Of a stretch of DNA of 55,238 nucleotides, positions 21,447 through 45,103 are shown piece after piece. The notes under the pieces were generated by a model. The model saw only the letters and a program-made list of their open reading frames with translations. It did not search any database and had not been told where the DNA came from. The stretch comes from Thiotrichales bacterium (GTDB lineage Bacteria > Pseudomonadota > Gammaproteobacteria > GCF-002020875), in assembly GCA_018658305.1 (NCBI GenBank), contig JABHVM010000030.1, positions 1-55,238 of the forward strand, written 5' to 3'. Every line of letters starts with the position of its first letter. The first letter of the stretch is position 1. Position numbers and translations under genes: made by a program.

Positions 21447-21731
21447 ATTTTTTATATTCCTTATAATAGTATTATCAACAATTAATATTGAAATCTTACT
21501 CACGCTATCAGTCATTTTAAATTTTTGACTCTTTTGAGATTGGCTACTTTACTCCTCTTACCAGCTCTTTCAAGCAGATATTTTTTCTTTAGCTATAAAT
21601 TAAACTTATCAGCACAAGTTTTTTTTATAGAGTATAAAATTCCCTAATGCTCAATGCGAAGCATTCTCAACTACAGCTAGATAAATCATACTCTACATAC
21701 AATATTATATAATTATGAGATACTCTGCATT

Positions 21732-27002: not shown

Positions 27003-27851
27003 TTAACTGCAACCTTTATTGAAGCGGCTTCCATAACAGAACACTTGGGGAGCACATACATCTATACACCGACCACAGTTGGTACACTGCTCACTATTGA
27101 TAACTGGAGAGTAACCATCTTTCCCCTTTAGAGCTACCCTTATCACTTGCGGTTCTGGACAAACCACAAAGCAATCCATGCAGTCATTACAAGAGCTGCG
27201 TTGCGCTGCGCGTACTCGGAGCAGACTAAACCTACCTAACAGACTATAGAATGCACCCATAGGACAGACGTGTCCACACCATCCATTTCTACTCCACAGG
27301 AGGTCATATAAAAACACTCCAACCACTACACTCCAACCAAGCCCAACACTATAGAATATACTGCGCTGAAGTAGGGTAACAGGATTCACCAGCTCCCAGA
27401 GCATGGAACCAGTAAAGAGTGAAAGTAGCACAACCATAGCTAGAACCCAATAACGGGTCTGCGGAGAGAGTTCACACTTTTTCTTAAGCCCCAACTTACG
27501 CCGTAACCAGGCTGCTGTATCTGTCACCATATTCATAGGACAGACCCACGAACAGTAGACTCTACCACCTACTATCAAATAGAAGAGCACCACAAGTAGT
27601 GCCCCAATTAGGGCCGTGCTCTCAAATACTTGTCCCGCAGCCAGAGTCTGTAGATATAAAAATGGATCAGTTAGAGGAACTGTTTCTAACAGTACGCTAG
27701 ATGCCAGACTGCCATTTATAATTGTGAGAGGGGCAAATAGAAAGAGCATAATAATTGATATTTGAGAGAGACGACGCAACAGTAGCCACTTATGCGCTCT
27801 AAACCGCCCCTTCTCTTTAACCGCTTCACTTCCTGCCGCTACTCTCTTCAT
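27003..27851 (-). CDS. napH: Quinol dehydrogenase membrane subunit
   Basis: LLRRLSQ, GGRVYCSWVCP, GWCGHVCPMG, CNDCMDCFVVCPEPQV, CTNCGRCIDVC. Confidence 0.95.
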   Translation of the reverse strand: MKRVAAGSEAVKEKGRFRAHKWLLLRRLSQISIIMLFLFAPLTIINGSLASSVLLETVPLTDPFLYLQTLAAGQVFESTALIGALLVVLFYLIVGGRVYCSWVCPMNMVTDTAAWLRRKLGLKKKCELSPQTRYWVLAMVVLLSLFTGSMLWELVNPVTLLQRSIFYSVGLGWSVVVGVFLYDLLWSRNGWCGHVCPMGAFYSLLGRFSLLRVRAAQRSSCNDCMDCFVVCPEPQVIRVALKGKDGYSPVINSEQCTNCGRCIDVCAPQVFCYGSRFNKGCS

Positions 27852-28426
27852 TAGTTATCCTCTTTAACAATTTCTCTATGATGGAGTGACAGCGCATCCA
27901 CTGGGCAGGGCGCTATACATGCACCACATCCATTACATTTATCTGTACTCATCTCCATCTGCACCGCGCCACCAACGCGCGGTCTAAACTTAAACACCTC
28001 TTCCAGACACTGATCTCCACAGACTTGACAGACAACTCCTCTCTGCGCAATACAGGTGTGAGCTAAACGAACCTCCATACTCCACGCAACCCCCTGTTCA
28101 TCATCCTCTGTAGGGAGAAAACGCAGCGCTTGTGGCTTACAGTGATTCACACACTCTCCGCAGAATGTACACTCTCCGCGCTTGAACTCAACCACTGGAA
28201 ACTTAGCGCGCGCCTCCACTAAAATATTAGTCTCACAATATTTTACACATTCACCACAACGGGTGCACTCTTCTGTAAACTGATACTCAGGCAGAGCCCA
28301 TGGTGGTCTTAGTGGACGATTTTTACCTCTAATATCTCCGCGTAAAAATTGCGCACGACTCACCCCTCTCTGTACCTCTGACTGTCTCTCTTCACGCTTG
28401 CGACCACTCTTAAAAAAATCAAACAT
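27851..28426 (-). CDS. napF: Ferredoxin-type protein
   Basis: SRAQFLRG, LRPPWA, four Cys clusters (CTRCGEC, CTFCGEC, CQVCGDQC, CNGCGAC). Start is 28426 or the TTG at 28438. Confidence 0.9.
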   Translation of the reverse strand: MFDFFKSGRKREERQSEVQRGVSRAQFLRGDIRGKNRPLRPPWALPEYQFTEECTRCGECVKYCETNILVEARAKFPVVEFKRGECTFCGECVNHCKPQALRFLPTEDDEQGVAWSMEVRLAHTCIAQRGVVCQVCGDQCLEEVFKFRPRVGGAVQMEMSTDKCNGCGACIAPCPVDALSLHHREIVKEDN

Positions 28427-28465
28427 ATCTATTCTCAATCAACCTTACTCTCTTCATCCCAGTAA

Positions 28466-29068
28466 CTACCCTACCACATCTAGGAAGCGGGAACGGAACC
28501 CTACTCCACACTGCTCTGCCAACGCTTTACATTCGGCTATATTTACTCCATCTAAACCATCAATGGCACTCGCCCTTACTAATGGAATACTCTCTCCTGC
28601 TAGTCGCAAAAAATCCAGCATCGCCGCAAATGATCCCTCTAACTGAGGATGACAATGAATATTATAGACCTCTTCGTTCTGCCCATTCATAGAGACCGAG
28701 AGCTCATCTATCAATCCCACCATCTCTGGAACTACATTGCGCTTATGAAACAGGTTAGCTAATCCATCGGTATTAATTCTAGTTAAACCGCCTCTCTCCT
28801 TAATCCAGCCAGCAACCTCCAGCAACAACTTTAAACGCAGAGTAGGTTCACCATAGCCACAAAATACTATCTGACTATACTCTAGTGGATCGCCGATTGC
28901 AGCAATCACCTCTGCAAAGCTCGGGCGATGATCTGCAGTTAGATTGTATTCATGCACCTGCATACTGCCCTGCGTCTTAGGACAAAATTCACAAACCAGA
29001 GTACAACGATCTGTAATACTCAGGTATAGTCTATCTTCGATAGGGTATGCAATTGTCTGGTTTGGCAC
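28466..29068 (-). CDS. Radical SAM protein (TatD-associated type)
   Basis: LYLSITDRCTLVCEFC (CxxxCxxC), VFCGYGEPT, RINTDG, SVSMN. Confidence 0.82.
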   Translation of the reverse strand: MPNQTIAYPIEDRLYLSITDRCTLVCEFCPKTQGSMQVHEYNLTADHRPSFAEVIAAIGDPLEYSQIVFCGYGEPTLRLKLLLEVAGWIKERGGLTRINTDGLANLFHKRNVVPEMVGLIDELSVSMNGQNEEVYNIHCHPQLEGSFAAMLDFLRLAGESIPLVRASAIDGLDGVNIAECKALAEQCGVGFRSRFLDVVG

Positions 29069-29127
29069 TATACTCTCTCTTCTCTAGAAATATTCACTAA
29101 CATTAAATAACCAATGGCAAAATTAAA

Positions 29128-29688
29128 ATGAGACATCTTAGCACTATACTACCATCACTCCTATCAATTATCTTATCTTCTCTAGCCGTAACTAGCGCAA
29201 CTGCTACCCCCAACTCTTCCCCTACCCTTCTCGATGCGGCTAATCAGGGAGAGGTTCAGTTAACTAAAAAACTTCTAAATAGTATGGCTCCACTCTATCC
29301 GCGCACTAGATCAGGTGAAACCCCTCTCCATCGCGCTGCATATCATGGCTATCCAGAGATTGTTAAGCTCCTTATATCTGCCGAGAGCGTAGTAAATGCT
29401 GTCTCGCGACCAGGTGAGACTCCGCTCCATAAAGCTGCTCAGAAGGGACATATAGATATTATTCAACAACTCCTTACTGCGGGTGCAGAGGTAGATAAAC
29501 AGAACGAATATGGCATCAGCCCACTGCAGCAAGCGATCACAGCAGGACAACTAGAGAGCGTTAAACTACTTTTAGGCTGGGGAGCAGATCCAAAACTTGT
29601 AGATAAACTTGGCATAACCCCTCTGCAGTATGCTACTATGGAGGATGAGTTTGAGATTACAGAACTACTGAAGCAGTATCTCAAGTAA
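29128..29688 (+). CDS. Exported ankyrin-repeat protein
   Basis: Signal peptide plus repeated GETPLH, GISPL and GITPL motifs. Confidence 0.9.
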   Translation: MRHLSTILPSLLSIILSSLAVTSATATPNSSPTLLDAANQGEVQLTKKLLNSMAPLYPRTRSGETPLHRAAYHGYPEIVKLLISAESVVNAVSRPGETPLHKAAQKGHIDIIQQLLTAGAEVDKQNEYGISPLQQAITAGQLESVKLLLGWGADPKLVDKLGITPLQYATMEDEFEITELLKQYLK

Positions 29689-29757
29689 GTAGTAGTATTC
29701 AAAAAACCATATATGATCACCAATTAACCAATATTTTTTACCAAAGGAGACAATTTT

Positions 29758-30384
29758 ATGAACTTACACGCAATCAACATTCAACTTATAAACAGAAAAC
29801 TATCGGGAGCTTTAGTAGCATCTGCTATGCTACTAGCGAGCGGGCCTCTATCTGCAGCAACTAACACTCAACAGAGTGACAATATGGCAAATATGGGGAT
29901 GAGTGACGCTATTAACTTCTACATCCAAGCTCTACCTATGGAGTTAGACTCCTTGACGCGGGTTCAGTTATTAGATAAGTCTGAAGATATTTTGACCAAC
30001 ATTATAAAAGCTGATCCAAAATCTCTGGAAGCACACCGTAAGCTCCTCGCAGTCTATATGCAGAAGTTAGAGTACAACAAAGGGATCAGCATAGTTAAAA
30101 ATGCAATTAATCTCAGCCCAGAAGATCCTAAGCTCTTTATCACCCTAGCGATCCTCTACCAGAAAATTGGGGCGTTAGAGTACTCTTTAGCTATGGTAGA
30201 GCAGGCTCTAGAACTTGACCCTCAACATATTGTCGCTAAAGATTACAAGGTATTGCTCCAGAAAAAAATTGAGGCAGATAAGGCTGGAGGAACACATAAC
30301 AGCATGTCTAACAGTATGCCTAGTAGCGGTGCACCACACGGTAAGCTCAACCCTGTAGGGGCAGCGGCTCCATCGGCACACTAA
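29758..30384 (+). CDS. Exported TPR-repeat protein
   Basis: Signal peptide, TPR-like helices (AINLSPEDP, ALELDPQH), Met/His-containing tail. Confidence 0.78.
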   Translation: MNLHAINIQLINRKLSGALVASAMLLASGPLSAATNTQQSDNMANMGMSDAINFYIQALPMELDSLTRVQLLDKSEDILTNIIKADPKSLEAHRKLLAVYMQKLEYNKGISIVKNAINLSPEDPKLFITLAILYQKIGALEYSLAMVEQALELDPQHIVAKDYKVLLQKKIEADKAGGTHNSMSNSMPSSGAPHGKLNPVGAAAPSAH

Positions 30385-30397
30385 AGAGAGTAACTAA

Positions 30398-31384
30398 ATG
30401 CAACTAACAGACCCATTTGGGCGCACCATTGACTATCTGAGACTCTCGATTACAGATCGCTGCGATCTGCGCTGTGTTTACTGTATGCCCGATGGGTTTG
30501 ATGATTATGAAGCTCCAGAGAGCTGGCTAACCTTTGATGAGATTGAAAGGGTGGTACGCATCTTCGGGGAGCTGGGAGTTGCTCACATCCGAATGACTGG
30601 TGGCGAACCGCTAGTGCGCAAAGGGGTGGTAGAGTTAAGCGCACGGCTAGCACAGCTAGATGGAATAGATGATCTATCTCTAAGCACTAACTGCGTCAAG
30701 ATGAAGAAATTTGCGCAACCACTAAAAGATGCTGGAGTCTCCCGCATCAATGTCAGCCTTGACAGCCTTAATCCAGAGAAGTTCAAGGAAATTACTGGGG
30801 GCGGAAAACTCAGTAAAGTCCTGGATGGACTGATGGCGGCAAAAGATGCTGGCTTCACTCCAATCAAACTCAACGCTGTAGCGATGAAGGGAGTCAATGA
30901 TGATGAACTTGGTGATATGGTTGAGTTCTGCCTAGAGCATAACTTTACTTTGCGCTTTATTGAGACTATGCCTATGGGTGAAACTGGTTGTCGCGCTAAA
31001 GATTCACACTATCTAGACCTTAATATTATTCGTCAAGAGCTGGAGAAAAAGTTTGAACTAGTCCCCAGCGTAATGCCTGGCGCTGGTCCAGCTCGTTACT
31101 TTAAAATAAAAGGAACAGATTTCAATTTTGGATTTATAACTCCAATATCGCAACATTTCTGTGAAACTTGCAACCGCATTCGCCTCTCTTGTGATGGAAC
31201 TCTCTATATGTGTCTAGGGCAAGATGAAAGCTTCTCGCTACGCCCACTGCTACGAGGAGGCGCTACCAATGATGAACTTAAGGATGCCATTCACCATGCG
31301 CTCACCCTTAAACCAGAACAACATGAGTTTGAAAGTGAGCAGAAAGAGCAAGTAGTCCGCTTTATGAATATGACTGGCGGATAA
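30398..31384 (+). CDS. moaA: GTP 3',8-cyclase (Moco biosynthesis)
   Basis: YLRLSITDRCDLRCVYCMP, TGGEP, FCETCNRIRL, C-terminal GG. Confidence 0.97.
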   Translation: MQLTDPFGRTIDYLRLSITDRCDLRCVYCMPDGFDDYEAPESWLTFDEIERVVRIFGELGVAHIRMTGGEPLVRKGVVELSARLAQLDGIDDLSLSTNCVKMKKFAQPLKDAGVSRINVSLDSLNPEKFKEITGGGKLSKVLDGLMAAKDAGFTPIKLNAVAMKGVNDDELGDMVEFCLEHNFTLRFIETMPMGETGCRAKDSHYLDLNIIRQELEKKFELVPSVMPGAGPARYFKIKGTDFNFGFITPISQHFCETCNRIRLSCDGTLYMCLGQDESFSLRPLLRGGATNDELKDAIHHALTLKPEQHEFESEQKEQVVRFMNMTGG

Positions 31385-31438
31385 ATCCAAATATATACAT
31401 AATATATACATACCTCGCAACCCCTGTCAGGAATCAGC

Positions 31439-31510
31439 TACCCCCCTTATTTACAGATATTTAAAATAAAAAAAGCACCTATATAAGCGTATGGTTGTTG
31501 ACATACCCCT
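31439..31510 (+). promoter_or_regulatory. Possible NarL-type heptamers upstream of napA
   Basis: TACCCCC (31439), CACCTAT-AT-AAGCGTA 7-2-7-like site (31476-31491), TACCCCT (31504); the motif is short, so support is weak. Confidence 0.35.
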
Positions 31511-31692
31511 ATTTTTTTGAGATAAATACCCAATCAGCAGTAACCATTACTGAATAACACGACATAGTGTTACTCAATATAATATAACCGCTGTTTTTTT
31601 GGAGTGGGATTACATCTTATATAATTTGTAGCCCACCTATTTTTTAACTCATATTTAATTATTTTTAATTATAAAGAGAGGAGCAGTAACTT

Positions 31693-34245
31693 ATGAGTAT
31701 CTCGAGAAGAGAGTTTATTAAAACAAATGCAGCGGCGGCTACCGCAACTGCAATGGGTCTAGGACTTGGCGGCATTCCAGCTGTCACAGTTGCTAAAGAT
31801 GGATATGATTCAGACGGAATCCGTTGGGATAAAGCACCATGTCGTTTCTGTGGTACAGGCTGTAGTATATTGGTCGGTACTCGTGACGGGCGTGTAGTTG
31901 CGACTCAGGGCGACCCAGATGCAGCGGTAAACAAAGGTCTAAACTGTATCAAGGGATATTTTCTATCCAAAATTATGTATGGTAAGGATCGTTTAGACAC
32001 TCCTCTACTGCGTCAAACTGACGGTGAGTTTGATAAGAATGGTGAGTTTACTCCTATCAGCTGGGATGCAGCATTCGACATTATGGCAGAGAAGTGGAAA
32101 GGAGCTATGGCTAATGACCGTGCTCGTGGCGATGGCAAATCTACAGTAGGTATGTTTGGTTCAGGACAGTGGACTGTTATGGAAGGGTACGCTGCATCTA
32201 AACTGATGAAGGCTGGCTTCCGCTCCAATAATATCGACCCTAACGCTCGCCACTGTATGGCATCTGCGGTAGGAGCATTTATGCGCACCTTCGGTTCTGA
32301 CGAGCCAATGGGCTGTTATGATGACTTTGAGCATGGTGAGAACTTTGTGCTTTGGGGTTCCAATATGGCTGAGATGCACCCCATCCTCTGGTCAAGAATT
32401 ACTGATACTCGTCTCACTAAAAAGAACTCTACAGTACAAGTTTTATCTACATTCACTCACCGAAGCTGTGACTTAGCAGATAATGTGATGATTTTTGAAC
32501 CACAGACTGACCTAGTGATTGGTAACTATATTGCCAACTACATTATTCAGAACGGTGCAGTAAATAAATCATTTGTAGAAAATAGTACCAATATCCGCCT
32601 TGCTAACACCGATATCGGTTACGGTCTACGCCCAACTGATCCGCGCGAGAAGAACGCTAAGAACAGCTCTCCTCGTAAAGCACAGGTTGGATCTAAACCA
32701 ATGAGCTTCGATGAGTACAAGGAATTTGTTGCAGACTACACTCTAGAGAAGACCTCTAAAATGTCTGGGGTTCCAGAGAGAAATCTCCTAGAGCTAGCTG
32801 AGATCTACGCCAATCCGAACAAGAAGGTAATGTCTCTATGGACTATGGGTGTAAACCAGCATACTCGTGGAGTCTGGATGAACCACCTAATATATAACAT
32901 CCATCTTCTAACCGGCAAGATCTCTCTCCCTGGTAATGGTCCATTCTCCTTGACTGGACAGCCTTCAGCGTGTGGTACTGCTCGTGAGGTTGGAACTTTT
33001 GCTCATCGTCTCCCTGCAGATTTGGTAGTAATGAAGAAACCACATCGTGACTTTGCTGAGAAGACCTGGAAGATTCCAGAGGGTACTATCCCTGCCAAAC
33101 CTGGCTATCACGCCGTACTGCAGAACCGTATGTTGAAAGATGGCAAGATAAATGCTTACTGGGTAATGTGTAACAACAATGTGCAGGCAGCACCAAACCT
33201 CAATGAAGAGACTATGCCTGGCTATCGCAATCCGAAGAACTTTATTGTAACTTCCGATCCATATCCAACTGTTACTGCAATGGCATCTGACCTAATTCTC
33301 CCTACTGCAATGTGGATTGAGAAAGAGGGAATGTATGGTAATGCGGAGCGCCGTTCACAAGCTTGGCGCCAGCAGGTTCCTTCAGCTAAAGGAACTCGTT
33401 CAGATATCTGGCAGTTAATGGAGTTCTCCAAACGATTTACTACTGAAGAGGCATGGGGTGAAGAGCATGTTGCAAAAATGCCTGAACTGCGTGGCAAAAC
33501 ACTATTTGATGTCCTCTACGCAAATGGTCAAGTCAATAAGTATGGACTTGATGAGCTTCAGCCAGGACATGACAACGAAGAGGCGTTCCATTTTGGCTTC
33601 TATCCACAGAAGGGGCTCTTTGAAGAGTACCGTCTCTTTGGAACTAAAGGACCTAAGAAAGGGCATGAACTTGGTGATTACACCCAGTACCATAAGGTGC
33701 GTGGTATGCGCTGGCCTGTAGTAGATGGCAAAGAGACTCTCTGGCGCTATCGTGATGGCTTTGATCCACATGTACGCAGATCTAACCCAACAGTAGCGAA
33801 GGGAGATGTCTATTTCTATGGTAAGCCAGACGGTAAAGCAAATATCTTCTGCTGCCCTTACGAGCCACCTGCAGAATCACCTAATGATGAGTATCCATTC
33901 TGGATGTCTACTGGACGAGTACTTGAACATTGGCACTCAGGAACAATGACTCAGCGAGTCCCTGAGCTCTACAAGGCGGTTCCTGATGCGTTGATCTATA
34001 TGAATGCAAAAGATGCGAAAGCACAGCGTATGCATGATGGATCTGTGGCTAAGGTATCTTCTAGGCTTGGTGATTTCACTGGTCGTATCTCCACTCGTGG
34101 ACGAAATAAGATGCCAGAAGGGATGATCTTCGTACCATGGTTCGATGCTCGTCGTCTAGTTAACAAGCTAATTCTTGATGCAACCGATCCTCTATCCAAA
34201 GAGACCGATTACAAAAAAGTTGCTGTTAAAATTACTAAAGTCTAA
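31693..34245 (+). CDS. napA: Periplasmic nitrate reductase catalytic subunit
   Basis: Tat signal [48 protein letters not shown]. Confidence 0.98.
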
Positions 34246-34258
34246 GGAGGATTATCCA

Positions 34259-34705
34259 ATGAAAAAGAGTAATAAAATGATGTTTCTGTTGGGCGTGTCT
34301 ATGGTTGCAATGGCTGGTAGCAGCTCTATAGCTACTGCTTTTTATGAGGTAACGTCTCTACGAGGAGATCTAAGTATCAACAGTGATGCGCAGATTCCTG
34401 CCAAGAAGAGAATATATAAAAATGTAGATCTATTTGCGAGAGATTTTAAGGAGCAACCTCCTTTCATGACTCACAAAGAGTATGCTATAAACATTAGGGA
34501 TAATCGCTGTTTTGAGTGTCACAGTGAAGATAACTATCAGGAAGAGGAGACAACTCGTATTCCTGATACCCACTATATGGATCGCAACGACAACAAGCTA
34601 GATCATGTAGCTGGTTCTCGTTACTTCTGTAACCAGTGTCATATGCCGCTATTTAAGGTTGAACCATTAGTTGATAATGACTTCAGATCTTCATCTAGAA
34701 GGTAG
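34259..34705 (+). CDS. napB: Periplasmic nitrate reductase diheme cytochrome c subunit
   Basis: EQPPFMTH, CFECH, RYFCNQCH; AAGGAGG RBS before ATG at 34259. Confidence 0.93.
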   Translation: MKKSNKMMFLLGVSMVAMAGSSSIATAFYEVTSLRGDLSINSDAQIPAKKRIYKNVDLFARDFKEQPPFMTHKEYAINIRDNRCFECHSEDNYQEEETTRIPDTHYMDRNDNKLDHVAGSRYFCNQCHMPLFKVEPLVDNDFRSSSRR

Positions 34706-34735
34706 TCTGGATATGTAATCCATTTGTGACAATAG

Positions 34736-34770
34736 AAGCCGTCTGGATATAATGTCTAGGCGGCTTTTTT
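34736..34770 (+). terminator. Intrinsic terminator after napB
   Basis: AAGCCGTCTGGA...TCTAGGCGGC followed by a T-run. Confidence 0.8.
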
Positions 34771-34881
34771 ATGTGTTATATTACCAACAAGATAGTTACA
34801 TATTAAAGTTAAAAACAGAGCTTAAAATAGAGTTAGAAACAGAGTTATAAACGAAAGTTATATATTAAAAGAGAGATAAAA

Positions 34882-35160
34882 ATGACAGAAGAGTTAATCC
34901 AAATTTCAGGTATTGCAATTCGTTTCACCCCTGAATTTATGCAACCAATTAAAGAGAAGCTTCTTACCATAACAGGGTTAGAGATTCACGCTGAAGATCC
35001 TGCTGGAAAGTTTGCAGTCACTATTGAGAATAGAAACTCGCATGCTATGACCGATATAATCAGTGATATTGAGGCGTTAGATGGGGTAGTACTGGTAAAC
35101 CCAGTCTATATCCACGATGAAGAGGAGATGAGTGGCGATAATGCCAATATTAAATTGTAG
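34882..35160 (+). CDS. napD: NapA chaperone
   Basis: QISGIAI, GLEIHA, GKFAVTIE, GVVLVNPVY; 92 aa. Confidence 0.85.
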   Translation: MTEELIQISGIAIRFTPEFMQPIKEKLLTITGLEIHAEDPAGKFAVTIENRNSHAMTDIISDIEALDGVVLVNPVYIHDEEEMSGDNANIKL

Positions 35161-35197
35161 ATATAGATCCTCCAACTACAGATTCTAAATAAAAAAT

Positions 35198-36046
35198 ATG
35201 AAAAAAATAGATCGACGAGAATTTATCACCAATAGCGGTAAGATGGTTGGCGGTATGGCGATTGCTGGAGCTGGTATCGCTCTATTTGGTTCTCAAGCAA
35301 GCTCTAACCCAGCATACGCTCTGCGTCCACCAGGAGCGCTTCCAGAGGAGCAGTTTTTAGGTGCTTGCATAAGATGTGGTCTCTGCGTTAAAGATTGCCC
35401 TTATGATATTCTAAAACTTGGAGAGATCCAAGATGAAGTGGCTCTAGGAACCCCCTACTTTATAGCTAGAGAGATACCTTGCGAGATGTGTGAAGAGATC
35501 TACTGCATTCAAAACTGCCCTACAGGAGCTCTAGATCATAACTTAGCCGACATCAACACATCAAGAATGGGGGTAGCTGTACTGGTTGATCAAGAGACCT
35601 GCCTCAATCTATTGGGGCTGCGTTGTGATATCTGCTACCGTGTATGCCCAGTTATAGACGAGGCTATTACCTTAGAAAGATTTCACAACACTCGCACCCA
35701 AAGCCATACCCTATTTATCCCTACTGTTCACTCTGACAGCTGCACTGGCTGCGGCAAGTGTGAACATGCCTGCCCACTCCCTATCGCCGCAATTAAAGTT
35801 CTTCCAGAGAGTTTAGCTAAAGGTGAATCTAGCTCACACTATCGCCTCGGCTGGAAAGAGAAAGAGAAAAAAGGTAGTGCGTTAGTTGCGCCAGATGTAG
35901 AGCATCAATATAATCTTCCAGATGGATACAAGTATGATCTGCAAGGAGAGGGATTATCTATCCCCGAGACAGATAGTGGGCCAAACTTAATGGATTTTGA
36001 CATTCCTGGATTTGCCAATATCTCTATCTCAAAACCAAAAGAGTAA
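35198..36046 (+). CDS. napG: Ferredoxin-type protein
   Basis: Tat DRREF, ALRPPGAL, CIRCGLC, PCEMC, CDICYRVCP, CTGCGKC, HYRLGW. Confidence 0.95.
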   Translation: MKKIDRREFITNSGKMVGGMAIAGAGIALFGSQASSNPAYALRPPGALPEEQFLGACIRCGLCVKDCPYDILKLGEIQDEVALGTPYFIAREIPCEMCEEIYCIQNCPTGALDHNLADINTSRMGVAVLVDQETCLNLLGLRCDICYRVCPVIDEAITLERFHNTRTQSHTLFIPTVHSDSCTGCGKCEHACPLPIAAIKVLPESLAKGESSSHYRLGWKEKEKKGSALVAPDVEHQYNLPDGYKYDLQGEGLSIPETDSGPNLMDFDIPGFANISISKPKE

Positions 36047-36144: not shown

Positions 36145-37311
36145 ATGAATCTGCATGAGTACCAAGCAAAAGAGCTATTCCGTAAAGTTGGGATCCCCAC
36201 CCCTAATGGGGAGGTGGTTATAGATAGTGATAGCGTAGAGGTGGTTGCTAAAGATATTGGGGGTAATGCTTGGGTTGCTAAAGCACAAGTCCATGCTGGT
36301 GGACGAGGTAAAGGTGGTGGAGTTAAGATCTCTACAAGTATAGATGATCTGGTTGCTGCTACCAATCAGATGCTTGGCAACACCCTAATCACTCCTCAGA
36401 CTCACGGACGCGGACTACCAATCAATAGCGTACTGATCGAAGAGACTCTTGATATAGAGCGAGAGTTATACCTTGGCGCACTAGTTGATCGTGATCAAGA
36501 GAAGATTGTCTATATGGCATCTAGTGCTGGGGGAATGGATATTGAGCAGGTTGCGGCAGAGACTCCTGAAAAAATTGTAACTGTACATGCTGATCCTGCA
36601 GCTGGATTACAAGCCTACCAGTGCCGTCAACTAGCATTCGGTTTGGGGTTAGAGGGAAAACAGATTAGTGCATTAACAAAAATTGTTACTGGACTACATC
36701 GTCTATTTACCCATAACGACCTAAGTTTAGTTGAGATTAATCCTCTAATTATTACCGCAGATGGTGAGTTAGTAGCTCTGGATGCGAAGATAAATATAGA
36801 TGATAATGCTCTCTACCGTCACCCTAAACTCAAGGATCTCCACGATCCATCTCAGGAAGATGCAGCAGAACTTGAAGCGAGCAAGCACGAACTAAACTAC
36901 ATAACCCTTGATGGAAATATTGGTTGCATGGTGAATGGTGCTGGACTTGCAATGGCGACTATGGATCTAATTAAATTACAGGGAGGCGAGCCTGCAAACT
37001 TTCTTGATGTTGGTGGTGGTACTACTGCAGAAAGAGTTGCAGTGGCATTTAAGCTAATATTAAGTGACTCTAAGGTTAAAGCTATCTTGGTAAATATCTT
37101 TGGCGGTATCGTGCGTTGCGACCTTATTGCTGAGGGAATTATAAGTGCTATCCAAGAGGTTGGGGTAGATATTCCAGTGGTAGTTAGACTTGAGGGCACT
37201 AACGCTCCGCAAGGGATGGCGCTTCTTAAAAGTAGCGGGCTAAATATTGATGTTGAAGATACATTAACTGGCGCTGCTAAAAAGGCAGTAGAGAAAGGAG
37301 CTCAAGCATGA
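36145..37311 (+). CDS. sucC: Succinyl-CoA synthetase beta subunit
   Basis: [41 protein letters not shown]. Confidence 0.98.
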
Positions 37312-38198
37312 GTATATTAATTAACAAAGAAACTCGGGTAATTGTGCAGGGCTTTACTGGAAAACAGGGTACTTTTCATGCAGAGCAGTCTATCGCCTAT
37401 GGAACTAACATTGTAGGTGGAGTAACTCCTGGCAAGGGTGGACAGAGCCACCTTGAACTCCCTGTATTCAACACTGTAGCTGATGCAGTTGCAGATACTG
37501 GCGCTGACGCAACTATGATCTATGTCCCTGCCCCATTTGCTGCAGATGCTATTTTTGAAGCGGCGTCAGCTGGGATCAAAACCATAGTATGTATTACTGA
37601 AGGGATACCTGTACAGGAGATGATTAAAGTTAAAGCATTCTTAAAAGATTTTCCTGAGACTAGACTTATTGGGCCAAACTGTCCAGGCATCATCACCCCT
37701 GGGGCTTGCAAAATTGGAATTATGCCAGGCAATATTCATCAAGAGGGGAAGATTGGTATCGTCTCTCGTTCAGGAACCCTCACCTATGAGGCTGTATTCC
37801 AAACAACCAATGCAGGACTAGGTCAATCCACCTGTATCGGTATCGGAGGAGACCCTATCCACGGGATGAACTTCATCGACTGTCTAGAGCTGTTTCAACA
37901 AGATGAGCAGACTAAGGGCATTGTATTGGTCGGGGAAATTGGCGGAAGCAAAGAGGAAGAGGCTGCAGAGTATATTCGCAACCATGTAACCAAACCAGTA
38001 GTAGCATATATTGCAGGAGTAACAGCTCCAGCAGGACGCAGAATGGGGCATGCTGGAGCAATCATCTCTGGTGGTAAAGGCACTGCTGAAGATAAAATTA
38101 CAGCACTAGAAGCCGCTGGAGTGACCGTATCTCGCTCCCCTGCTGAGATAGGTGAAAATATGGCAGAGCTTCTTAGTAACTATTCAGCTCCCCCCTAA
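37308..38198 (+). CDS. sucD: Succinyl-CoA synthetase alpha subunit
   Basis: [33 protein letters not shown]; the last residues come from a repeat element. Confidence 0.98.
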
Positions 38199-38354: not shown

Positions 38355-38867
38355 TTAATGCAAATGCACGGTTTCAAACTCAAAGGGTAGTTCATAAATT
38401 ATATCATCCAGCTCCACTCGCAGAATAGCAACCCACTGTATCATGTTACGAATACAGACCGATAGACTACCCTTACCTGTAAAGATGGTACTGTTCTGCT
38501 TTACGCTGGATGACTCCTCTTGCTGAAGCTCAAACTGGAGAAAACCCATATACATATCCTTCCCCTCGAACTGAATTTGAACTCTATCTGGCTCTGCATC
38601 GGTAAATTCTGCTCTTAATAAAATCGGTTCTATTGATGATGGATTTTTTGGAGTCATCTCAAAAACAACCTCTACATCTTTATGGAGAGAGATAGTTCCA
38701 CTGCATGGCCTCAAGTGGAGCTTACAATCTTTTACCACCTCTAGACGCACCACTCTCTTATTTTTTTCGCTAAAATATTTATCACCATAATAGAGTCCAG
38801 CGCCAACAATAGCTAAGACTACTAAAGTTACACTAATAATTATTGCTCTTCTCACAGCTACTACCAA
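38355..38867 (-). CDS. Hypothetical membrane-anchored protein coupled to SCO
   Basis: N-terminal TM, CKLHLRPC, GKDMYMG, LSVC; overlaps the SCO stop. Confidence 0.7.
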   Translation of the reverse strand: MVVAVRRAIIISVTLVVLAIVGAGLYYGDKYFSEKNKRVVRLEVVKDCKLHLRPCSGTISLHKDVEVVFEMTPKNPSSIEPILLRAEFTDAEPDRVQIQFEGKDMYMGFLQFELQQEESSSVKQNSTIFTGKGSLSVCIRNMIQWVAILRVELDDIIYELPFEFETVHLH

Positions 38868-39532
38868 GCGTTCTGAATTGACAGAAGATCTCTAATCATC
38901 ACATCTGGATTATGAGGTGTGGTAAGAATTGCGTGCAGATCCCCATCTGGGTTGGTCAAAAATATTGCCGCAGAGTGGTTGATCAAGTAAGAGTTCTCTA
39001 GCCCTTCTGGAATATCTTCATCCTCATCAACCACCAACTCTCTACCATTCAAGTAGTAGACTCGCTCATACATTGCACCCATAGAGTGTGACAGAGAATC
39101 AACTACGTTCTGCTCTCCTGTGACACCTAAAAAAGATGGGTGATAGTAACCTGTATACTCTTGTAGAGACTTGGGAGTATCTCTCTGTGGATCAACAGAT
39201 ACGAACACCACCTGAGGTTTATCTATTTTAAGTGCTGAATCTTGCTCTAAAGAGCGCATCATCTCAGAGAGCATAAAGAGCTCGGTTGGGCAGACATCAG
39301 GGCAGTGAGTGTAACCAAAGAAGAATAGCGACCACTTACCTTTAAGATCAGCAACTGAAAAATCGTTCAGTTCACTACTCTGTAACTCAAAATGTTTTAA
39401 GTTAAAAGGAGGCAGTTCTTTAGCTTGTGGCAATACTGTTGCGGCTTCTAACTGCAATCTTTCTGGTGAACGATCACAACCAGCGAGTAGCAGTGGGATC
39501 ATCAATACTAATATATTTATAATTTTTTTCAT
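38861..39532 (-). CDS. SCO1/SenC-family copper chaperone, lipoprotein
   Basis: LLAGC lipobox, FGYTHCPDVCP, VDPQRDT, YLINHSA. Confidence 0.93.
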   Translation of the reverse strand: MKKIINILVLMIPLLLAGCDRSPERLQLEAATVLPQAKELPPFNLKHFELQSSELNDFSVADLKGKWSLFFFGYTHCPDVCPTELFMLSEMMRSLEQDSALKIDKPQVVFVSVDPQRDTPKSLQEYTGYYHPSFLGVTGEQNVVDSLSHSMGAMYERVYYLNGRELVVDEDEDIPEGLENSYLINHSAAIFLTNPDGDLHAILTTPHNPDVMIRDLLSIQNAW

Positions 39533-39638: not shown

Positions 39639-40988
39639 ATGAGACTACTATCTATATTCACCAATAGCTTTGCTCATGGTGTTCACCCTGCCCATCATAA
39701 AGGTCAGACTGAAAACCTTGCAATTCAGCGAGTCCCATTTGGGAGTCGTTTTGTAATGCCGCTTGGACAACATATAGGAATTCCAGCGTTAGCTGTGGTT
39801 AAAAAGGGAGACAAAGTACGAAGAGGTCAGCTAATTGCAAAAGCTGGTGGATTTGTCTCTACTGCGCTCCACAGTCCAGTAACTGGCACCATTAGTGAGA
39901 TCTCTCCTCAACGCACTATTGATGGCTCTTTTAAGGAGTCGATTGTTATTAAAGCAGATCCCTTCTCTAGCCAACGCATTGATAGCACTCCACCTGCCGC
40001 TTGGGAAAAGTTATCTCTGGAAGAGTTTATCCAGACTGTACAGCAGGCAGGAATTGTTGGAATGGGAGGAGCCGCATTTCCGAGCCATGTTAAATACTCT
40101 ATTCCAGAGGGAGCCCAGATAGATGACCTTCTCATAAATGGAGCAGAGTGTGAGCCATACCTAACTAATGACCACCGTTTAATGGTAGAGAGAGCTGAGG
40201 CAGTAATTGATGGTAGTGAAATTTTGCGTCAGAAGTTGGGAGCAAAGCAAGCCACTATAGGCGTAGAGAAAAATAAACCAGAAGCGATAAAAACTCTGCA
40301 AGATGCTCTGCGCCAACGCCCATCAGCTCCTATTAAGATAGCAGCACTAGAAGTTAAGTACCCACAAGGTGCTGAGAAGATGTTGATTCAATCTGTCTAT
40401 AAGAGAGAGATTCCAGCTGGGGCACTACCCAGAGATATTGGAGTTGCAGTAAATAATGTCGGTACGATTGTCGCTATTGCCGATTTGTTCAGTCAAGGTA
40501 TGCCTCTTATTGAACGCATCGTAACCGTCTCTGGACCAGGCATAGATCGTCCTGCCAACCTTACAGTTCCGCTTGGCACTTCAGTACGGGATGTACTAGA
40601 GTTTTGTGGTGGACTGAACGATAAGAGTCGTGAGATCATTATGGGTGGACCAATGATGGGGTTTCCTATTGCAAGCCTTGATGTACCGATACTTAAAGGT
40701 AGTTCAGGAATTTTAGCCTTCACTGCCAAAGAGACTGCTCGTCCCCATGAATATCCATGCATCCGTTGTGGTCGATGTTTGGAGGCGTGCCCCTATTTTT
40801 TAAACCCCTCTCGTCTAGCCCTCCTAAGTCGAAATAGAAGATATGAAGAGACTGCAGAGTACCATATAATGGACTGCGTAGAGTGTGGAGCCTGTAGCTA
40901 TGCCTGCCCCTCCAACATCCCAATTTCACAACTTATCCGTACAGCAAAAAACAATTTGAAGCAGCATCCATTGGAAGAGGCTGCATGA
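39639..40988 (+). CDS. rnfC: Rnf electron transport complex subunit C
   Basis: QHIG, HSPVTG, GMGGAAFP, NGAECEPYLT, YPQGAEK, CIRCGRC, CVECGAC. Confidence 0.96.
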   Translation: MRLLSIFTNSFAHGVHPAHHKGQTENLAIQRVPFGSRFVMPLGQHIGIPALAVVKKGDKVRRGQLIAKAGGFVSTALHSPVTGTISEISPQRTIDGSFKESIVIKADPFSSQRIDSTPPAAWEKLSLEEFIQTVQQAGIVGMGGAAFPSHVKYSIPEGAQIDDLLINGAECEPYLTNDHRLMVERAEAVIDGSEILRQKLGAKQATIGVEKNKPEAIKTLQDALRQRPSAPIKIAALEVKYPQGAEKMLIQSVYKREIPAGALPRDIGVAVNNVGTIVAIADLFSQGMPLIERIVTVSGPGIDRPANLTVPLGTSVRDVLEFCGGLNDKSREIIMGGPMMGFPIASLDVPILKGSSGILAFTAKETARPHEYPCIRCGRCLEACPYFLNPSRLALLSRNRRYEETAEYHIMDCVECGACSYACPSNIPISQLIRTAKNNLKQHPLEEAA

Positions 40989-41010: not shown

Positions 41011-42027
41011 ATGAATAGATCAGAACCCGAACTTCTTCTCCAATCTGCTCCGCTACTGCGTGAAGGATTAACGATTCCTACAGCAATGCGTGATGTGATC
41101 ATTGCGCTGTTGCCTGCGCTGCTTGCAGGGTTCTGGTATTTTGGGATTAGTGCTCTGCTAGTGGTAATTGCATCTATCTTGGGTTGCGTTATGACCGAAT
41201 GGATTTTTACCGACAAGCAGAAGCGAATGATTGCCCTCTCTGATGGTAGTGCAATTCTTACTGGTCTACTGCTAGGTATGACTCTTCCCCCTGCTCTACC
41301 ACTCTGGATGGCTTGGATTGGAGGTGTGGTTGCTATTGGATTAGGCAAAGTGATCTGGGGCGGTCTGGGCGGCAATCTCTTTAACCCTGCTATTGTGGGT
41401 CGTGCATTTCTTCTAGGAACATTTCCAATTGCAATGACCACTTGGAATCTTGCTAAAGGAGGAACAGATAACTTCTTTAATCTCTACCCTAGCACCTTCA
41501 CTGCACCATTTATGCAGGTCGCGCCAACCGATGCGATGAGTGCCGCCACCCCACTTGGGCTGATGAAGTTTGAGCAGGTCGATACAGAGATCTTCTCTCT
41601 AATGTTTGGTAACACCTCAGGATCTCTAGGCGAAACTAGCGGTATTCTATTGATGGTTGGTGGACTATACCTACTTCTTCGTCGTGCGCTGGAGTGGCGT
41701 ATTCCTCTAGCTATATTTATATCAGCAGGGCTTTTCACTCTTATGCTCCATACTATTGACCCTGCCCGTTTTCCAGACATTCACTTCACCCTCTTCTCTG
41801 GTGGAATGATGCTCGGAGCAATCTATATGGCAACCGACCCTGTAACCTCTCCGCTCACCACCAAAGGCGCTTGGATATTTGGGAGTGGGGTTGGAGTGTT
41901 GATTGTACTAATTCGTAATTTTGGCGGGCTCCCCGAGGGGGTACTTTATGCAATTCTATTTATGAATGCAGCAACCCCTCTCATAAATCGCTACACTCAA
42001 CCTAAAGTATTTGGGAGGAGAGGCTAG
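41011..42027 (+). CDS. rnfD: Rnf subunit D
   Basis: DGSAILTG, GGLGGNLFNPA, SAATPL (FMN threonine), GSLGETS, MATDPVTSP. Confidence 0.95.
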   Translation: MNRSEPELLLQSAPLLREGLTIPTAMRDVIIALLPALLAGFWYFGISALLVVIASILGCVMTEWIFTDKQKRMIALSDGSAILTGLLLGMTLPPALPLWMAWIGGVVAIGLGKVIWGGLGGNLFNPAIVGRAFLLGTFPIAMTTWNLAKGGTDNFFNLYPSTFTAPFMQVAPTDAMSAATPLGLMKFEQVDTEIFSLMFGNTSGSLGETSGILLMVGGLYLLLRRALEWRIPLAIFISAGLFTLMLHTIDPARFPDIHFTLFSGGMMLGAIYMATDPVTSPLTTKGAWIFGSGVGVLIVLIRNFGGLPEGVLYAILFMNAATPLINRYTQPKVFGRRG

Positions 42028-42698
42028 TGACAACACAAAAACCAGCTGAGCAGGAACCATCCTCAACCAGACTTATTGCGACCCTTGCTATAGCTGGGCT
42101 TATTTCAGGAGTTGCAATTGTATCTATCTATGAAGCAACCCTTCCAACTATCACTGCAAATAAAGCACGAGAGCTCCGCGAGGCTGTATTTAAGGTGCTG
42201 CCTGGAGTGAGTAAAATGGAGAAGTATCAGCTAGAAGGTAATCAATTACGCTTTAGAACAGAAACAGGTAAAGATGAAAATACACTGTACGGTGGCTACA
42301 ACCAGCAGGGAGAGTTTGTGGGATATGCGCTACCGAGCTCAGGACCAGGATTTCAAGATACTATTGGAATTCTCTACGGATATATTCCAATTACTCGTAA
42401 AGTTGTAGGGATGGAAATTTTGGAGAGCAGAGAAACTCCAGGTCTCGGGGATAAGATCTATAAAGATCTATCTTTCGTCTCCAACTTTTATGACCTCTCC
42501 ATTGATCCCACTATTGTGACGGTAAAGAAAGGATTGAAGTCTGCCACTAATGAGGTGGATGCTATTACTGGCGCAACTATATCAGCTAAGGCTGTGGTGA
42601 GAATCATCAATGAGGGTAATGCACGCTGGGTTGAGAAGTTGCCTACTCACGGACTAGCACTACAAGAACAGCCAACTCAACAAGAGGGTGAAAAGTGA
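42027..42698 (+). CDS. rnfG: Rnf subunit G
   Basis: N-terminal TM, ETPGLG, DAITGATIS FMN-binding motif. Confidence 0.93.
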   Translation: MTTQKPAEQEPSSTRLIATLAIAGLISGVAIVSIYEATLPTITANKARELREAVFKVLPGVSKMEKYQLEGNQLRFRTETGKDENTLYGGYNQQGEFVGYALPSSGPGFQDTIGILYGYIPITRKVVGMEILESRETPGLGDKIYKDLSFVSNFYDLSIDPTIVTVKKGLKSATNEVDAITGATISAKAVVRIINEGNARWVEKLPTHGLALQEQPTQQEGEK

Positions 42699-43354
42699 AG
42701 CAACCAACAAGTTCATACCAAGAGATGATGAAAGGGATCTGGAGAGATAACCCTGTATTTGTGCAGGTATTAGGAATGTGCCCAATGTTAGCAGTGACTA
42801 ACTCTGCGGTTAATGCTCTCGCAATGGGGTTAGCAACACTTTTTGTCTTAGTTGGATCTAGTTTTCTAGTCTCTATTATGCGCCTCTGGATTCCTAAACA
42901 GGTGCGTATATCCAGCTATATAATTATTATTGCCACCTTTGTTACTATCATCGACTACAGTCTCTTGGCAGTTTTTCCAAAAATTCATAAAGAGCTCGGA
43001 GCATTCATTCCACTAATCACTGCAAACTGCCTGATCTTGGGAAGGCAAGAGGCCTTTGCCTCGCGTACCACTGTTCGTTTCGCAGTTATGGATGCACTAG
43101 GAATGTCGGGAGGTTTTCTCTTTGCGCTGATGGCACTTGGAAGTGTGCGGGAGATTTTAGGAGAGGGCGCACTTTTTGGAGTATCACTGTTTGGTCCAAA
43201 CTTTGAACCTTGGGTTATTATGATTCTACCGCCTGGTGGATTCCTAACACTTGGTCTAATCCTCCTCTTCTTCAACTGGGTGACAGAGAAGCGTCGTCAA
43301 GCTCAAATTAACTACAGACTCTCTCTAAACTCTATTGAGGAGAGCAGAGTATGA
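42695..43354 (+). CDS. rnfE: Rnf subunit E
   Basis: NPVFVQVLGMCP, IPLITANC, ILPPGGF. Confidence 0.95.
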   Translation: MKQPTSSYQEMMKGIWRDNPVFVQVLGMCPMLAVTNSAVNALAMGLATLFVLVGSSFLVSIMRLWIPKQVRISSYIIIIATFVTIIDYSLLAVFPKIHKELGAFIPLITANCLILGRQEAFASRTTVRFAVMDALGMSGGFLFALMALGSVREILGEGALFGVSLFGPNFEPWVIMILPPGGFLTLGLILLFFNWVTEKRRQAQINYRLSLNSIEESRV

Positions 43355-43941
43355 GCGATCCAGCACTTCAACACTTTCTCTGGATCTTTATCAGCGCACT
43401 GCTGGTAAACAATTTTGTGCTCGCCTATTTCTTAGGACTCTGTCCATTTCTTGGAGTTTCTGGAAAACTGGAAACCTCAGCACGACTAGGGTTAGCAACC
43501 ACCTTTGTACTAATCATCACCGCTATCTGTGCTTGGATCCTAAATACTTATATCCTACCCCACGCCCCATATCTACGCTTGATCAGCTTTATCGTGGTAA
43601 TCGCCAGCGTAGTACAATTTATTGAGATGTTAATCAAAAAACTAAGTCCATCTCTATTCCGCTCTTTAGGAATATTCCTTCCTCTCATAACTACCAACTG
43701 CGCCATTCTTGGTCTTGCAATTTTCGCTACTAATCGTGAATATAGCTTCTTAGAGAGCGTCGTGTTTGCACTTGGTGCTGGTGGTGGCTTCACCCTAGCA
43801 CTTCTACTCATGGCTGGATTGAGAGAAGAGAGTGAACTTGCCGATGTACCAACTCTAATTCGTGGCACAGCATTTAACCTTATTATTGCTGGTATACTCT
43901 CAATGGCATTTATGGGATTTGCAGGACTCTTCTCAACTTGA
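43351..43941 (+). CDS. rnfA: Rnf subunit A
   Basis: NNFVLAYFLGLCPFLGVS, GIFLPLITTNCAILG, SMAFMGF. Confidence 0.95.
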   Translation: MSDPALQHFLWIFISALLVNNFVLAYFLGLCPFLGVSGKLETSARLGLATTFVLIITAICAWILNTYILPHAPYLRLISFIVVIASVVQFIEMLIKKLSPSLFRSLGIFLPLITTNCAILGLAIFATNREYSFLESVVFALGAGGGFTLALLLMAGLREESELADVPTLIRGTAFNLIIAGILSMAFMGFAGLFST

Positions 43942-44129
43942 ACATACTCCAGCACCTCCCTGCAATATTAGCACTAGCTGCGCTCCTCGCAGGATGGGTA
44001 GCATTTCAGCAGTGGCTCCAACGCAGGGGAGAGTTAGATACAAAGTATAAACCAGGATGTGGAGCATGTTCCAACAAAGATAGTTGCGGCACTAGCAATA
44101 GCGATGAGAGTAAACAAGTTAAGTTATAA
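43938..44129 (+). CDS. Small membrane-anchored Cys-rich protein (63 aa)
   Basis: TTG start overlapping the rnfA stop (TTGA), one TM helix, then PGCGACSNKDSC. Confidence 0.65.
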   Translation: MNILQHLPAILALAALLAGWVAFQQWLQRRGELDTKYKPGCGACSNKDSCGTSNSDESKQVKL

Positions 44130-44167: not shown

Positions 44168-45103
44168 ATGAGAGTACACACAAGAAAAATAGCATTGATT
44201 GGTGGAGGGCAGATTGGGAGTGCGCTGGCGTTGCTGATCTCGCAGAAAGATCATGCAGAAGTTGTGATTATTGATCTTCCGCAGGCTATCGACTCTATCA
44301 AAGGTAAAGCTCTCGATATAATGGCGATGCGTCCGCATGCTGGAGTTGATGTCCCAATTACTGCGAGCAGTGACTATAGCGATATTGCAGGAGCTGAAGT
44401 AGTTATTATCACTGCAGGTGTTCCGCGTAAAGCTGGAATGACTCGCAACGATCTGCTAGATATAAATCTTGGAGTTATCAAGTCGGTCTCCAAAGAGGTA
44501 GCCAAACATGCGCCTAACGCATTTGTAGTTTTATCTACCAACCCTGTTGACACTATGTGTCAAGCTTTTCATAAATATTCAGGAATGGATAAGAGCCAAA
44601 TTATAGGTCTCTCTGGTGCTTTGGATAGTGGTCGCTTCCGTCTCTTTATTGCGATGAAGACTGGAATTTCAGCTAAGGATGTATCTTGCATGGTGATGGG
44701 TGGGCATGGTCCTACTATGATTCCGCTTACTAGAACCGCAACTGTTGGTGGAATCCCTATCCAAACTCTCCTCTCTGACCAGCAGATCGAAGAGATAGTA
44801 CAACGCACGCGTGATGCAGGAAGTGAAATCGTTAATTTAATGGGAAATGGTAGTGCCTATATCAGTCCAGCATCGGCTATTATGGAGATGGTAGTAGCAT
44901 ATCTCTACAATAAAAAAAGGCTTATCGCATCTTCAGTACTATGTGAGGGGGAGTATGGTATCGATAACTGCTTTATTGGAGTGCCATGCATTATTGGCGC
45001 TGGCGGGGTGGAGAAGATCGTAGAGATGGAGTTAAATAAAACAGAGAGTGATCAGCTCCAGATCAACTACAGAGCATTACAAGATAATATTACACAGATT
45101 TAA
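44168..45103 (+). CDS. mdh: Malate dehydrogenase (LDH-like type)
   Basis: GGGQIG, TAGVPRKAGMTRNDLL (Arg specifying malate), NPVD, LDSGRF, GGHG. Confidence 0.93.
   Translation: MRVHTRKIALIGGGQIGSALALLISQKDHAEVVIIDLPQAIDSIKGKALDIMAMRPHAGVDVPITASSDYSDIAGAEVVIITAGVPRKAGMTRNDLLDINLGVIKSVSKEVAKHAPNAFVVLSTNPVDTMCQAFHKYSGMDKSQIIGLSGALDSGRFRLFIAMKTGISAKDVSCMVMGGHGPTMIPLTRTATVGGIPIQTLLSDQQIEEIVQRTRDAGSEIVNLMGNGSAYISPASAIMEMVVAYLYNKKRLIASSVLCEGEYGIDNCFIGVPCIIGAGGVEKIVEMELNKTESDQLQINYRALQDNITQI

Follow-up and report, generated by a model that had tools for sequence, protein, structure and literature searches.

The contig JABHVM010000030.1 of a Thiotrichales bacterium (assembly GCA_018658305.1) was analysed over positions 1-55,238, and this whole stretch of 55,238 nucleotides is referred to as the window. 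It carries the Rnf genes rnfC, rnfD, rnfG, rnfE and rnfA, followed by a small open reading frame (ORF) of 63 amino acids (aa) at 43938-44129 on the + strand, here called the mini gene, with the mini-protein as its product. Judged by hydropathy, cysteine positions, conservation and substitution pattern, this ORF is a genuine protein-coding gene under purifying selection, and it is tied to one Rnf subtype, called 'rnf2' here (the complex is written Rnf2). Our best reading is that the mini-protein would be an Rnf2-specific accessory protein which handles iron-sulfur (Fe-S) centres, either a helper comparable to NqrM and RseC or a small extra subunit. It does not stand in place of RnfB, as an earlier note on this DNA had proposed.

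The mini gene and its product

The start codon of the mini gene is a TTG within the sequence TTGA (43938-43941, + strand), which overlaps the TGA stop codon of rnfA. In 10 relatives the equivalent is ATGA, and among the 14 loci with an adjacent rnfA (the window counted), 11 retain the 4-base overlap of start and stop. This overlap points to translational coupling of the mini gene to rnfA. The top 19-residue hydropathy window covers residues 3-21 (mean Kyte-Doolittle value 1.86) and the predicted transmembrane (TM) helix extends over about residues 3-27. After the helix follows a basic stretch, QRRGELDTKYK, and then the tail PGCGACSNKDSC, within which Cys 41, 44 and 50 form the pattern CX2CX5C. 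The protein ends 13 residues past the third Cys, and no further Cys is found among those 13. The coupled ORF with one TM helix and a Cys tail, as described in the earlier note, was thus recovered.

Homologues were searched in 40 related genomes by a translated search. The mini-protein has homologues with 38-57% identity (E ≤ 4e-10) in 13 of the 14 other genomes of the genus and in one of the two other genera of the family. W20, F23, Q24, W26, L27, Y37, P39, G40, C41, A43, C44 and C50 are invariant in all 15 mini sequences. For the conserved core, the proportion of non-synonymous differences (pN) was below that of synonymous differences (pS) in 105/105 pairs, with a mean pS of 0.67 and a mean pN of 0.13; the core had been chosen by hand, which lowers pN. 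It is the protein that is conserved, not the DNA.

The copy in the window is the most diverged of the genus. It starts with TTG instead of ATG and has RGELDTK where 13 of 14 others have DP.QF (12 times DP(E/D/Q)QF and once DPGQF), while every invariant residue is retained. A reading of the ORF as non-functional, be it a chance ORF or an untranslated remnant, could draw on exactly these features, i.e., the TTG start, the shortness and the missing DP(E/D)QF stretch in the genus's most diverged member. The uniform excess of pS over pN, the invariant residues, the kept start/stop overlap and the broad phyletic spread contradict it, and we regard it as extremely improbable. A chance ORF in particular was rejected on the pN < pS result.

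The stretch rnfE-rnfA-mini-mdh (mdh, the malate dehydrogenase gene downstream) is spanned at 100% identity by single contigs assembled from RNA libraries (four libraries, three studies). Such contigs indicate presence in the libraries rather than transcription, transcript ends or expression level, and because DNA carry-over is possible, this evidence is weak.

Breadth and variation of the family

A search of a set of 5.8 billion proteins with the mini-protein as single query returned only the query itself. With a profile of 15 sequences, 96 proteins were obtained from the same set, three of which had a precomputed PF12669 label; those of the 96 with a source name were all called 'hypothetical' except for one 'FeoB-associated'. 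The same profile gave 123 matches among 1.84 billion representatives, and 122 of them have a length of 48-94 aa. In the sole long match (851 aa), the best stretch covers profile positions 14-35 only. When 112 of the 123 representatives were scanned, none reached the gathering cut-off for a family covering the small protein. A match at the cut-off occurred only once in those 112, between Pyr_redox_dim and the tail of P0191; two representatives matched PF12669 below threshold. The mini-protein belongs to an unnamed family of predicted single-pass membrane proteins of 48-94 aa. In an even sample of the class, the family was present in 10 of 401 genomes and 7 of 320 genera.

Across 185 family members, the most conserved part is the helix motif LLC..W..FQ.WL..DP. 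The tail is mostly PG-C-x2-C-x4-C (61 members) or has the spacing x5 instead of x4 (22 members); 23 more distant sequences without CxxC, which have other Cys patterns, were left out of this tail count.

The mini-protein appears to be undescribed. It has no name in the family libraries scanned, and a literature search that did not cover supplements and left subscription journals mostly outside gave no account of any gene behind rnfA in an rnf2 cluster, so the gene is possibly tabulated somewhere as hypothetical. The Rnf2 gene layout itself is already known.

Linkage to rnfA and to the rnf2 type

In 13 of 14 relatives' loci, rnfA lies directly upstream of the mini gene, and mdh follows it directly, also in 13 of 14. 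Both the ORF and its three Cys are conserved beside rnfA. Among 24 mini loci on public genome contigs, the gene is immediately preceded by rnfA in 22, within an operon rnfC-D-G-E-A; these include loci from Sedimenticola, Sedimenticolaceae and metagenome-assembled genomes of Chromatiales, in which RnfC is only 57-67% identical. The other two (L050 and L051) were spurious motif matches of 17-18 residues without rnf genes and were set aside. At class level, rnfA was directly upstream in six of seven loci. The mini gene is found beside rnfA across four GTDB families, i.e., its own and three other gammaproteobacterial families.

Co-occurrence was recorded in 41 genomes. Fifteen have the mini gene together with an rnf2-type RnfA (one of them, G006, has a partial rnfA only) and 26 have neither; these genomes are kin and not independent, hence no statistic was attached to the counts. 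The mini gene is single-copy in each genome, and none adjoins a canonical rnfABCDGE operon. By these counts, the mini gene is tied to rnf2.

Location of RnfB and the split rnf2 cluster

The earlier note had stated that rnfC-D-G-E-A are contiguous with no rnfB nearby and a divergent SCO gene upstream, which is correct for the window. The five genes lie head to tail on the + strand (window ORFs, identified by family models), and no RnfB-family match above cut-off was obtained in the whole window in a scan with TIGR01944; the four matches returned correspond to ferredoxin domains of AprB, NapF and NapG. One of the two readings offered there, a minimal or vestigial RnfB within a non-canonical Rnf lacking RnfB, could not be upheld.

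This genome has two rnfA genes and two RnfB-family genes above cut-off, and both RnfBs are encoded on contig C41. One belongs to a canonical operon with the order rnfA-rnfB-...-rnfE (rnfABCDGE; C41, ~35.9-40.7 kb). The second is a complete RnfB of 293 aa (C41:7043-7924, - strand; TIGR01944 78.6 bits, cut-off 68.7). It has an N-terminal TM helix followed by LPGTNCGACGVPGC...C (CX2CX4CX16C) and further Fe-S motifs or ferredoxin domains. Its neighbours encode the alpha (498.6 bits) and beta subunits of a 2-oxoacid:ferredoxin oxidoreductase (OFOR; korAB), a protein of 862 aa and a protein of 1143 aa resembling pyruvate:ferredoxin oxidoreductase (PFOR).

In the relatives, these genes and the operon of the window belong together. 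In 5/5 more distant genomes carrying the mini gene, a long-type rnfB shares the strand of rnfC and precedes it by about 5 kb, with the PFOR-like gene in between. In 3/3 extended loci (L062-L064) the order korB - 831-aa protein - rnfB - PFOR-like - rnfCDGEA - mini is contiguous. The PFOR-like gene was found upstream of rnfC in 8/8 distant loci and in five of the seven same-genus loci examined. In L036, a locus from the same genus, sucC and sucD (succinyl-CoA synthetase) occupy the gap between the PFOR-like gene and rnfC, and sucCD are therefore part of the same conserved supercluster. The order of the rnf2 cluster in relatives is korAB - 862-aa protein - rnfB - PFOR-like - (sucCD) - rnfCDGEA - mini - (mdh). 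The present genome has this cluster in two parts: rnfCDGEA-mini-mdh lie in the window, and korAB, the gene of the 862-aa protein, rnfB and the PFOR-like gene on C41. In relatives, the rnf2-type rnfB found here on C41 is syntenic with the operon. The complex therefore has an RnfB of its own, and the mini gene is not in place of rnfB. An attractive idea is hereby corrected, as the Rnf of this bacterium is not RnfB-less. That the RnfB of the canonical operon serves both complexes was rejected as unnecessary, given the second, syntenic RnfB.

Two of the neighbours on C41 have features of their own. The 862-aa protein (L065:7869-10457, - strand) has no NCBIfam match; its C-terminal part holds a ferredoxin-like Cys motif. 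Relatives keep it between korB and the long rnfB, with 831 aa and ~43% identity in Sedimenticolaceae, and it is an unnamed conserved member of the rnf2/OFOR supercluster. The PFOR-like protein (L065:3637-7068, - strand) is highly divergent (TIGR02176 57 bits, cut-off 911) and its length varies by lineage, from 1143 aa here to 1505 aa in L063; it is a putative pyruvate synthase.

A replacement of RnfB by the mini-protein, with a soluble ferredoxin or flavoprotein docking directly, would explain the absence of rnfB from the window, and in clostridial rnfCDGEAB operons rnfB indeed follows rnfA. A likeness was also detected by hhalign, which was run on alignments built from natural sequences: the comparison of the mini family with the N-termini of 15 RnfBs gave a probability of 71.7%, aligning TM - DP - PG.CG.C...C. 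The RnfB N-terminus has a single TM anchor, as the mini-protein does, and its TM helix, DP and PG..CG.C....C come in the same order. However, a full RnfB of the matching type exists on C41. The mini-protein lacks the fourth Cys at +16 (CX2CX4CX16C in both RnfBs of the genome) as well as the C-terminal ferredoxin domains, and it did not match TIGR01944 at E up to 1, nor did the genome scan with this model give a match at 43938-44129. Furthermore, among the 123 profile matches from the 1.84 billion representatives, none had the mini family as N-terminus or other part of an RnfB-sized protein. We consider such a replacement highly improbable. Descent of the mini-protein from an RnfB N-terminus, as a matter of history and not of replacement, is a separate proposition and we hold it to be quite unlikely.

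Comparison with curated models and family profiles

Against the NqrM model PF04400, no match of the mini-protein was obtained at E up to 1, and 0/29 family members matched. A genome scan with PF04400 gave no match in this genome and none in the 14 other genomes of the genus. For RseC, the values were far below the cut-offs (Pfam PF04246: E 0.42, 11 bits, cut-off 24.4; NCBIfam NF008115: 17.8 bits, cut-off 184). The FeoB-associated model PF12669 was not matched by the mini-protein at E up to 1 and had no match in this genome; weak matches occurred in 10 of 29 members of the mini family (best 1e-6). In a class sample, PF12669 members were found in 6 of 201 genomes, two of them above cut-off, which was too few for a comparison profile. 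A feature-based atlas search gave 30 matches, and 27 of these fell in clusters whose members share no Pfam family; among the four matches listed in detail, the one at rank 7 was a PF12669 cluster with a score of 0.90.

In the hhalign comparisons, the mini family scored 87.3% probability over 56 columns against 17 NqrM sequences, with the TM helix and the Cys residues matched. Against 30 RseC sequences 54% was reached, on the Cys motif only. As controls, NqrM was compared with the RnfB N-termini (2.2%), and the mini family with 40 column-shuffled alignments (≤ 1.3%) and two reversed alignments (≤ 0.7%). Measured by these controls, the likenesses exceed background.

The NqrM-like Fe-S factor suggested in the earlier note may hold as an analogy only. 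Size, topology, operon logic and the 87% profile likeness agree with it, but the NqrM model and the NqrM signature do not.

Proposed function and alternatives

In Rnf complexes, RnfB and the cytoplasmic face of RnfA/E are located on the cytoplasmic side of the membrane. The most likely role of the mini-protein would be that of a dedicated helper for the assembly or repair of an Fe-S centre in Rnf2, comparable to NqrM for Na+-NQR and RseC for Rsx/Rnf; we give this role an even chance. The conserved TM helix with W..FQ.WL would dock on the membrane core of Rnf2, with RnfA/RnfE as the likeliest site because the mini gene is translationally coupled to rnfA. The invariant helix face would make a specific contact inside the membrane, and the start/stop overlap would provide for co-production with RnfA. 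By the positive-inside rule, the Cys tail is predicted to be cytoplasmic. Its CX2CX4-5C motif may hold a labile Fe-S cluster or iron, like the three Cys (CX2CX5C) of the RseC N-domain. The target of the helper would be either the first cluster of RnfB or the intramembrane [2Fe-2S] of RnfA/E, whose ligands we take to be C31 and C117 of RnfA together with C29 and C112 of RnfE. Rnf2 itself probably spends NADH and an ion gradient, reducing ferredoxin for the neighbouring 2-oxoacid:ferredoxin oxidoreductases.

Several points weigh against a helper of this kind. Canonical Rnf complexes are not known to need such a protein. The mini-protein fails all curated models, and the profile likenesses are short, depend on helix and Cys residues and point to three families, so none of them proves descent. 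Of the 185 family members, 148 have a fourth Cys inside the helix; this genus lacks it and has three Cys. The tails of distant members differ (e.g., GCSGNC, GCGCH), which speaks against one fixed cofactor site. In G015, a genome from a sister genus, the mini gene follows an unrelated gene, still directly upstream of mdh, and is thus unlinked from rnfA; the orthologous rnfA (89% identity) lies on another contig (C3, the mini gene being on C10) and the rnf2 operon is retained. Finally, conservation is stronger in the helix than in the tail; the tight coupling and the invariant helix face fit a stoichiometric subunit equally well.

The exception in G015 also suits a different explanation, namely a generic Cys-rich membrane protein of the FeoB-associated type (PF12669) for metal handling or sensing, which would sit beside rnfA by operon hitch-hiking and would not act on Rnf. 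The weak PF12669 matches in the family, the labels on 3/96 homologues and the PF12669 cluster of the atlas search agree with this. The window protein itself has no PF12669 match, however, and no feoB is nearby; the strict co-occurrence with rnf2 and the adjacency to rnfA over four GTDB families speak against it as well, and even G015 keeps its rnf2 operon. This explanation was judged very unlikely.

The main alternative is a stoichiometric extra subunit of Rnf2. The helix would then be permanently inserted in the membrane arm. At the cytoplasmic entry of RnfA/E the Cys tail, whether alone, dimeric or shared with RnfB, would bind a redox-active cluster or else a structural metal and would there tune electron transfer between the long RnfB and the membrane [2Fe-2S]. 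The 4-base overlap in 11/14 loci suggests equimolar synthesis with RnfA, the helix face W20/F23/Q24/W26/L27 is invariant where NqrM helices vary, and the mini gene co-occurs strictly with rnf2. Lineage-specific extra Rnf subunits have a precedent, e.g., RnfH in the A. vinelandii RNF1 structure, according to PMC12174285. On the other hand, the mini-protein evolves much faster than its neighbours (38-57% identity within the genus, RnfA 88-95%), and spacing and number of the tail Cys vary across the family. Such a subunit is possible, though on balance somewhat unlikely.

A complex prediction with RnfA, RnfE, RnfD and the mini-protein, using alignments, gave ipSAE values of 0.00 and 0.01 (mark 0.32); it was run without controls and was counted neither for nor against binding.

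Within the helper role, a more specific version was considered. The mini-protein would be the Rnf counterpart of NqrM, a membrane-anchored donor which installs the [2Fe-2S] of RnfA-RnfE and may share ancestry with NqrM and the RnfB anchor. This version is regarded as rather unlikely. If it were true, the mini-protein would be a molecular link in the Rnf-to-Nqr transition, for which a hypothesis with loss of rnfB from an operon of the rnfBCDGEA type has been put forward (PMC4014512, as far as the available text of this source goes).

Gene calls and other features of the window

All genes of the operon are on the + strand. The gene rnfC (39639-40988; TIGR01945 538.8 bits) encodes a flavin mononucleotide (FMN)/NADH domain and two 4Fe-4S motifs. 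It is followed by rnfD (41011-42027; TIGR01946 332.4 bits). The product of rnfG (42027-42698) is the FMN-binding subunit; it was assigned by PF04205, with TIGR01947 (94.4 bits) just below its cut-off of 102. The genes rnfE (42695-43354; TIGR01948 228.7 bits) and rnfA of the rnf2 type (43351-43941; TIGR01943 244.4 bits) encode proteins in which C29 and C112 of RnfE and C31 and C117 of RnfA are invariant in the alignment. The gap between rnfC and rnfD is 22 bases in the window and ~1.3 kb in two same-genus loci (L028:3612-4902, L032:3799-5098). Downstream of the mini gene, mdh was found at 44168-45103 (+ strand; NF004863 378 bits).

Upstream of the operon, a divergent SCO1/SenC gene (38861-39532, - strand, identified by family models) precedes rnfC. 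Its end overlaps by 7 bases with an ORF of 170 aa on the same strand, which has no Pfam or NCBIfam family; the pair spans 38355-39532. These two separate rnfC from sucC and sucD (36145-38198, + strand), upstream of which the nap genes are located. The pair was found between sucD and rnfC only in this genome; in L036, sucD leads directly into rnfC.

Genes for sulfur oxidation via adenosine 5'-phosphosulfate (aprBA and sat) and the nap cluster are located within 16894-21515 and 27003-36046. The nap cluster comprises napH, napF, napA and genes for a NapB-like cytochrome and a NapG-like ferredoxin. The host looks like a sulfur-oxidising nitrate reducer with a genome of 1.65 Mb. A multihaem cytochrome of 478 aa (25311-26747, - strand) weakly resembles proteins of the hydrazine dehydrogenase/hydroxylamine oxidoreductase type (E 2e-20, far below the cut-off).

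Significance

For the Fe-S cluster buried between RnfA and RnfE in the membrane, no assembly route is known to us; the only named factor of this kind is NqrM, which acts on NQR. As a conserved, Rnf-type-specific protein with a Cys motif, the mini-protein is a concrete and testable candidate for Fe-S assembly in Rnf. Its gene also marks a distinct Rnf subtype wired to 2-oxoacid:ferredoxin oxidoreductases and enzymes of the tricarboxylic acid (TCA) cycle in sulfur-oxidising autotrophs, where the provision of reduced ferredoxin for CO2 fixation is a topic of current interest.

Comparison with known systems

NqrM (PF04400, DUF539), the maturation factor of Na+-NQR, is like the mini-protein a protein of ~60-80 aa with an N-terminal TM helix and a cytoplasmic Cys cluster, and both are encoded at the 3' end of an operon for a pump of the Rnf/Nqr type. 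According to PMC12174285, this small maturation protein is bound to the membrane, the intramembrane [2Fe-2S] of NQR requires it, and its gene is transcribed together with nqr. The NqrM signature is GSCGG...CxCxxPC with four Cys, whereas the mini-protein has PGCGAC...C with three. GSCGG was present in 17/17 NqrM sequences; about half of them have C.C..PC and the rest other spacings or no PC. Whereas NqrM helices vary, the helix is the most conserved part of the mini family. The partners differ as well: NqrM belongs to NQR (with nqrA-F/apbE), and the mini gene lies behind rnfA in an Rnf operon, the RnfC of which carries FMN and Fe-S domains.

RseC (RseC_MucC), the partner of Rsx/Rnf in SoxR reduction, shares CX2CX5C followed by G-T-S with the mini-protein, while the wider mini family mostly has CX2CX4C. 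The true RseC of this genome (contig C62:11015-11419, L119) reads CGSCSAVSSCGTS where the mini-protein reads CGACSNKDSCGTS; the strings are nearly the same, and no other match comes closer at the level of the motif. For the three conserved Cys (CX2CX5C) in RseC, an Fe-S cluster sensitive to O2 is described, and the protein acts together with the Rnf-type Rsx complex (PMC11729352, in its available part). In Clostridium ljungdahlii, rseC is located upstream of rnfCDGEAB and has a role in that species, according to the excerpted text of 10.1101/2021.08.03.455012. The architecture is the reverse: RseC (~150 aa; 139-166 aa in the sequences compared) begins with its Cys domain, which two TM helices follow, and the mini-protein (63 aa) has its single TM helix ahead of the Cys. 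FeoB-associated proteins (PF12669) are small and have one TM helix and a Cys-rich tail, like the mini-protein. An association with feoB would be expected of such a protein; the neighbours of the mini gene are rnfA and mdh, and its family is marked by the conserved helix and the linkage to rnfA.

For the cluster as a whole, the closest layout is that of the Solemya velum symbiont. An account published in 2014 describes an rnf2 operon, rnfBCDGEA, in which pyruvate:ferredoxin oxidoreductase genes separate rnfB2 from rnfC2, plus a second operon rnfABCDGE (PMC4287430). The order rnfB - PFOR-like - rnfCDGEA is thus the same as in the relatives studied here. In its accessible text, that account mentions no gene after rnfA; in the present genome, the cluster is distributed over two contigs. 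In Endoriftia, genes of the reductive TCA (rTCA) cycle are reported to cluster with the Rnf complex (PMC11636981, in the portion of text available), and the system described here is also linked to TCA/rTCA genes.

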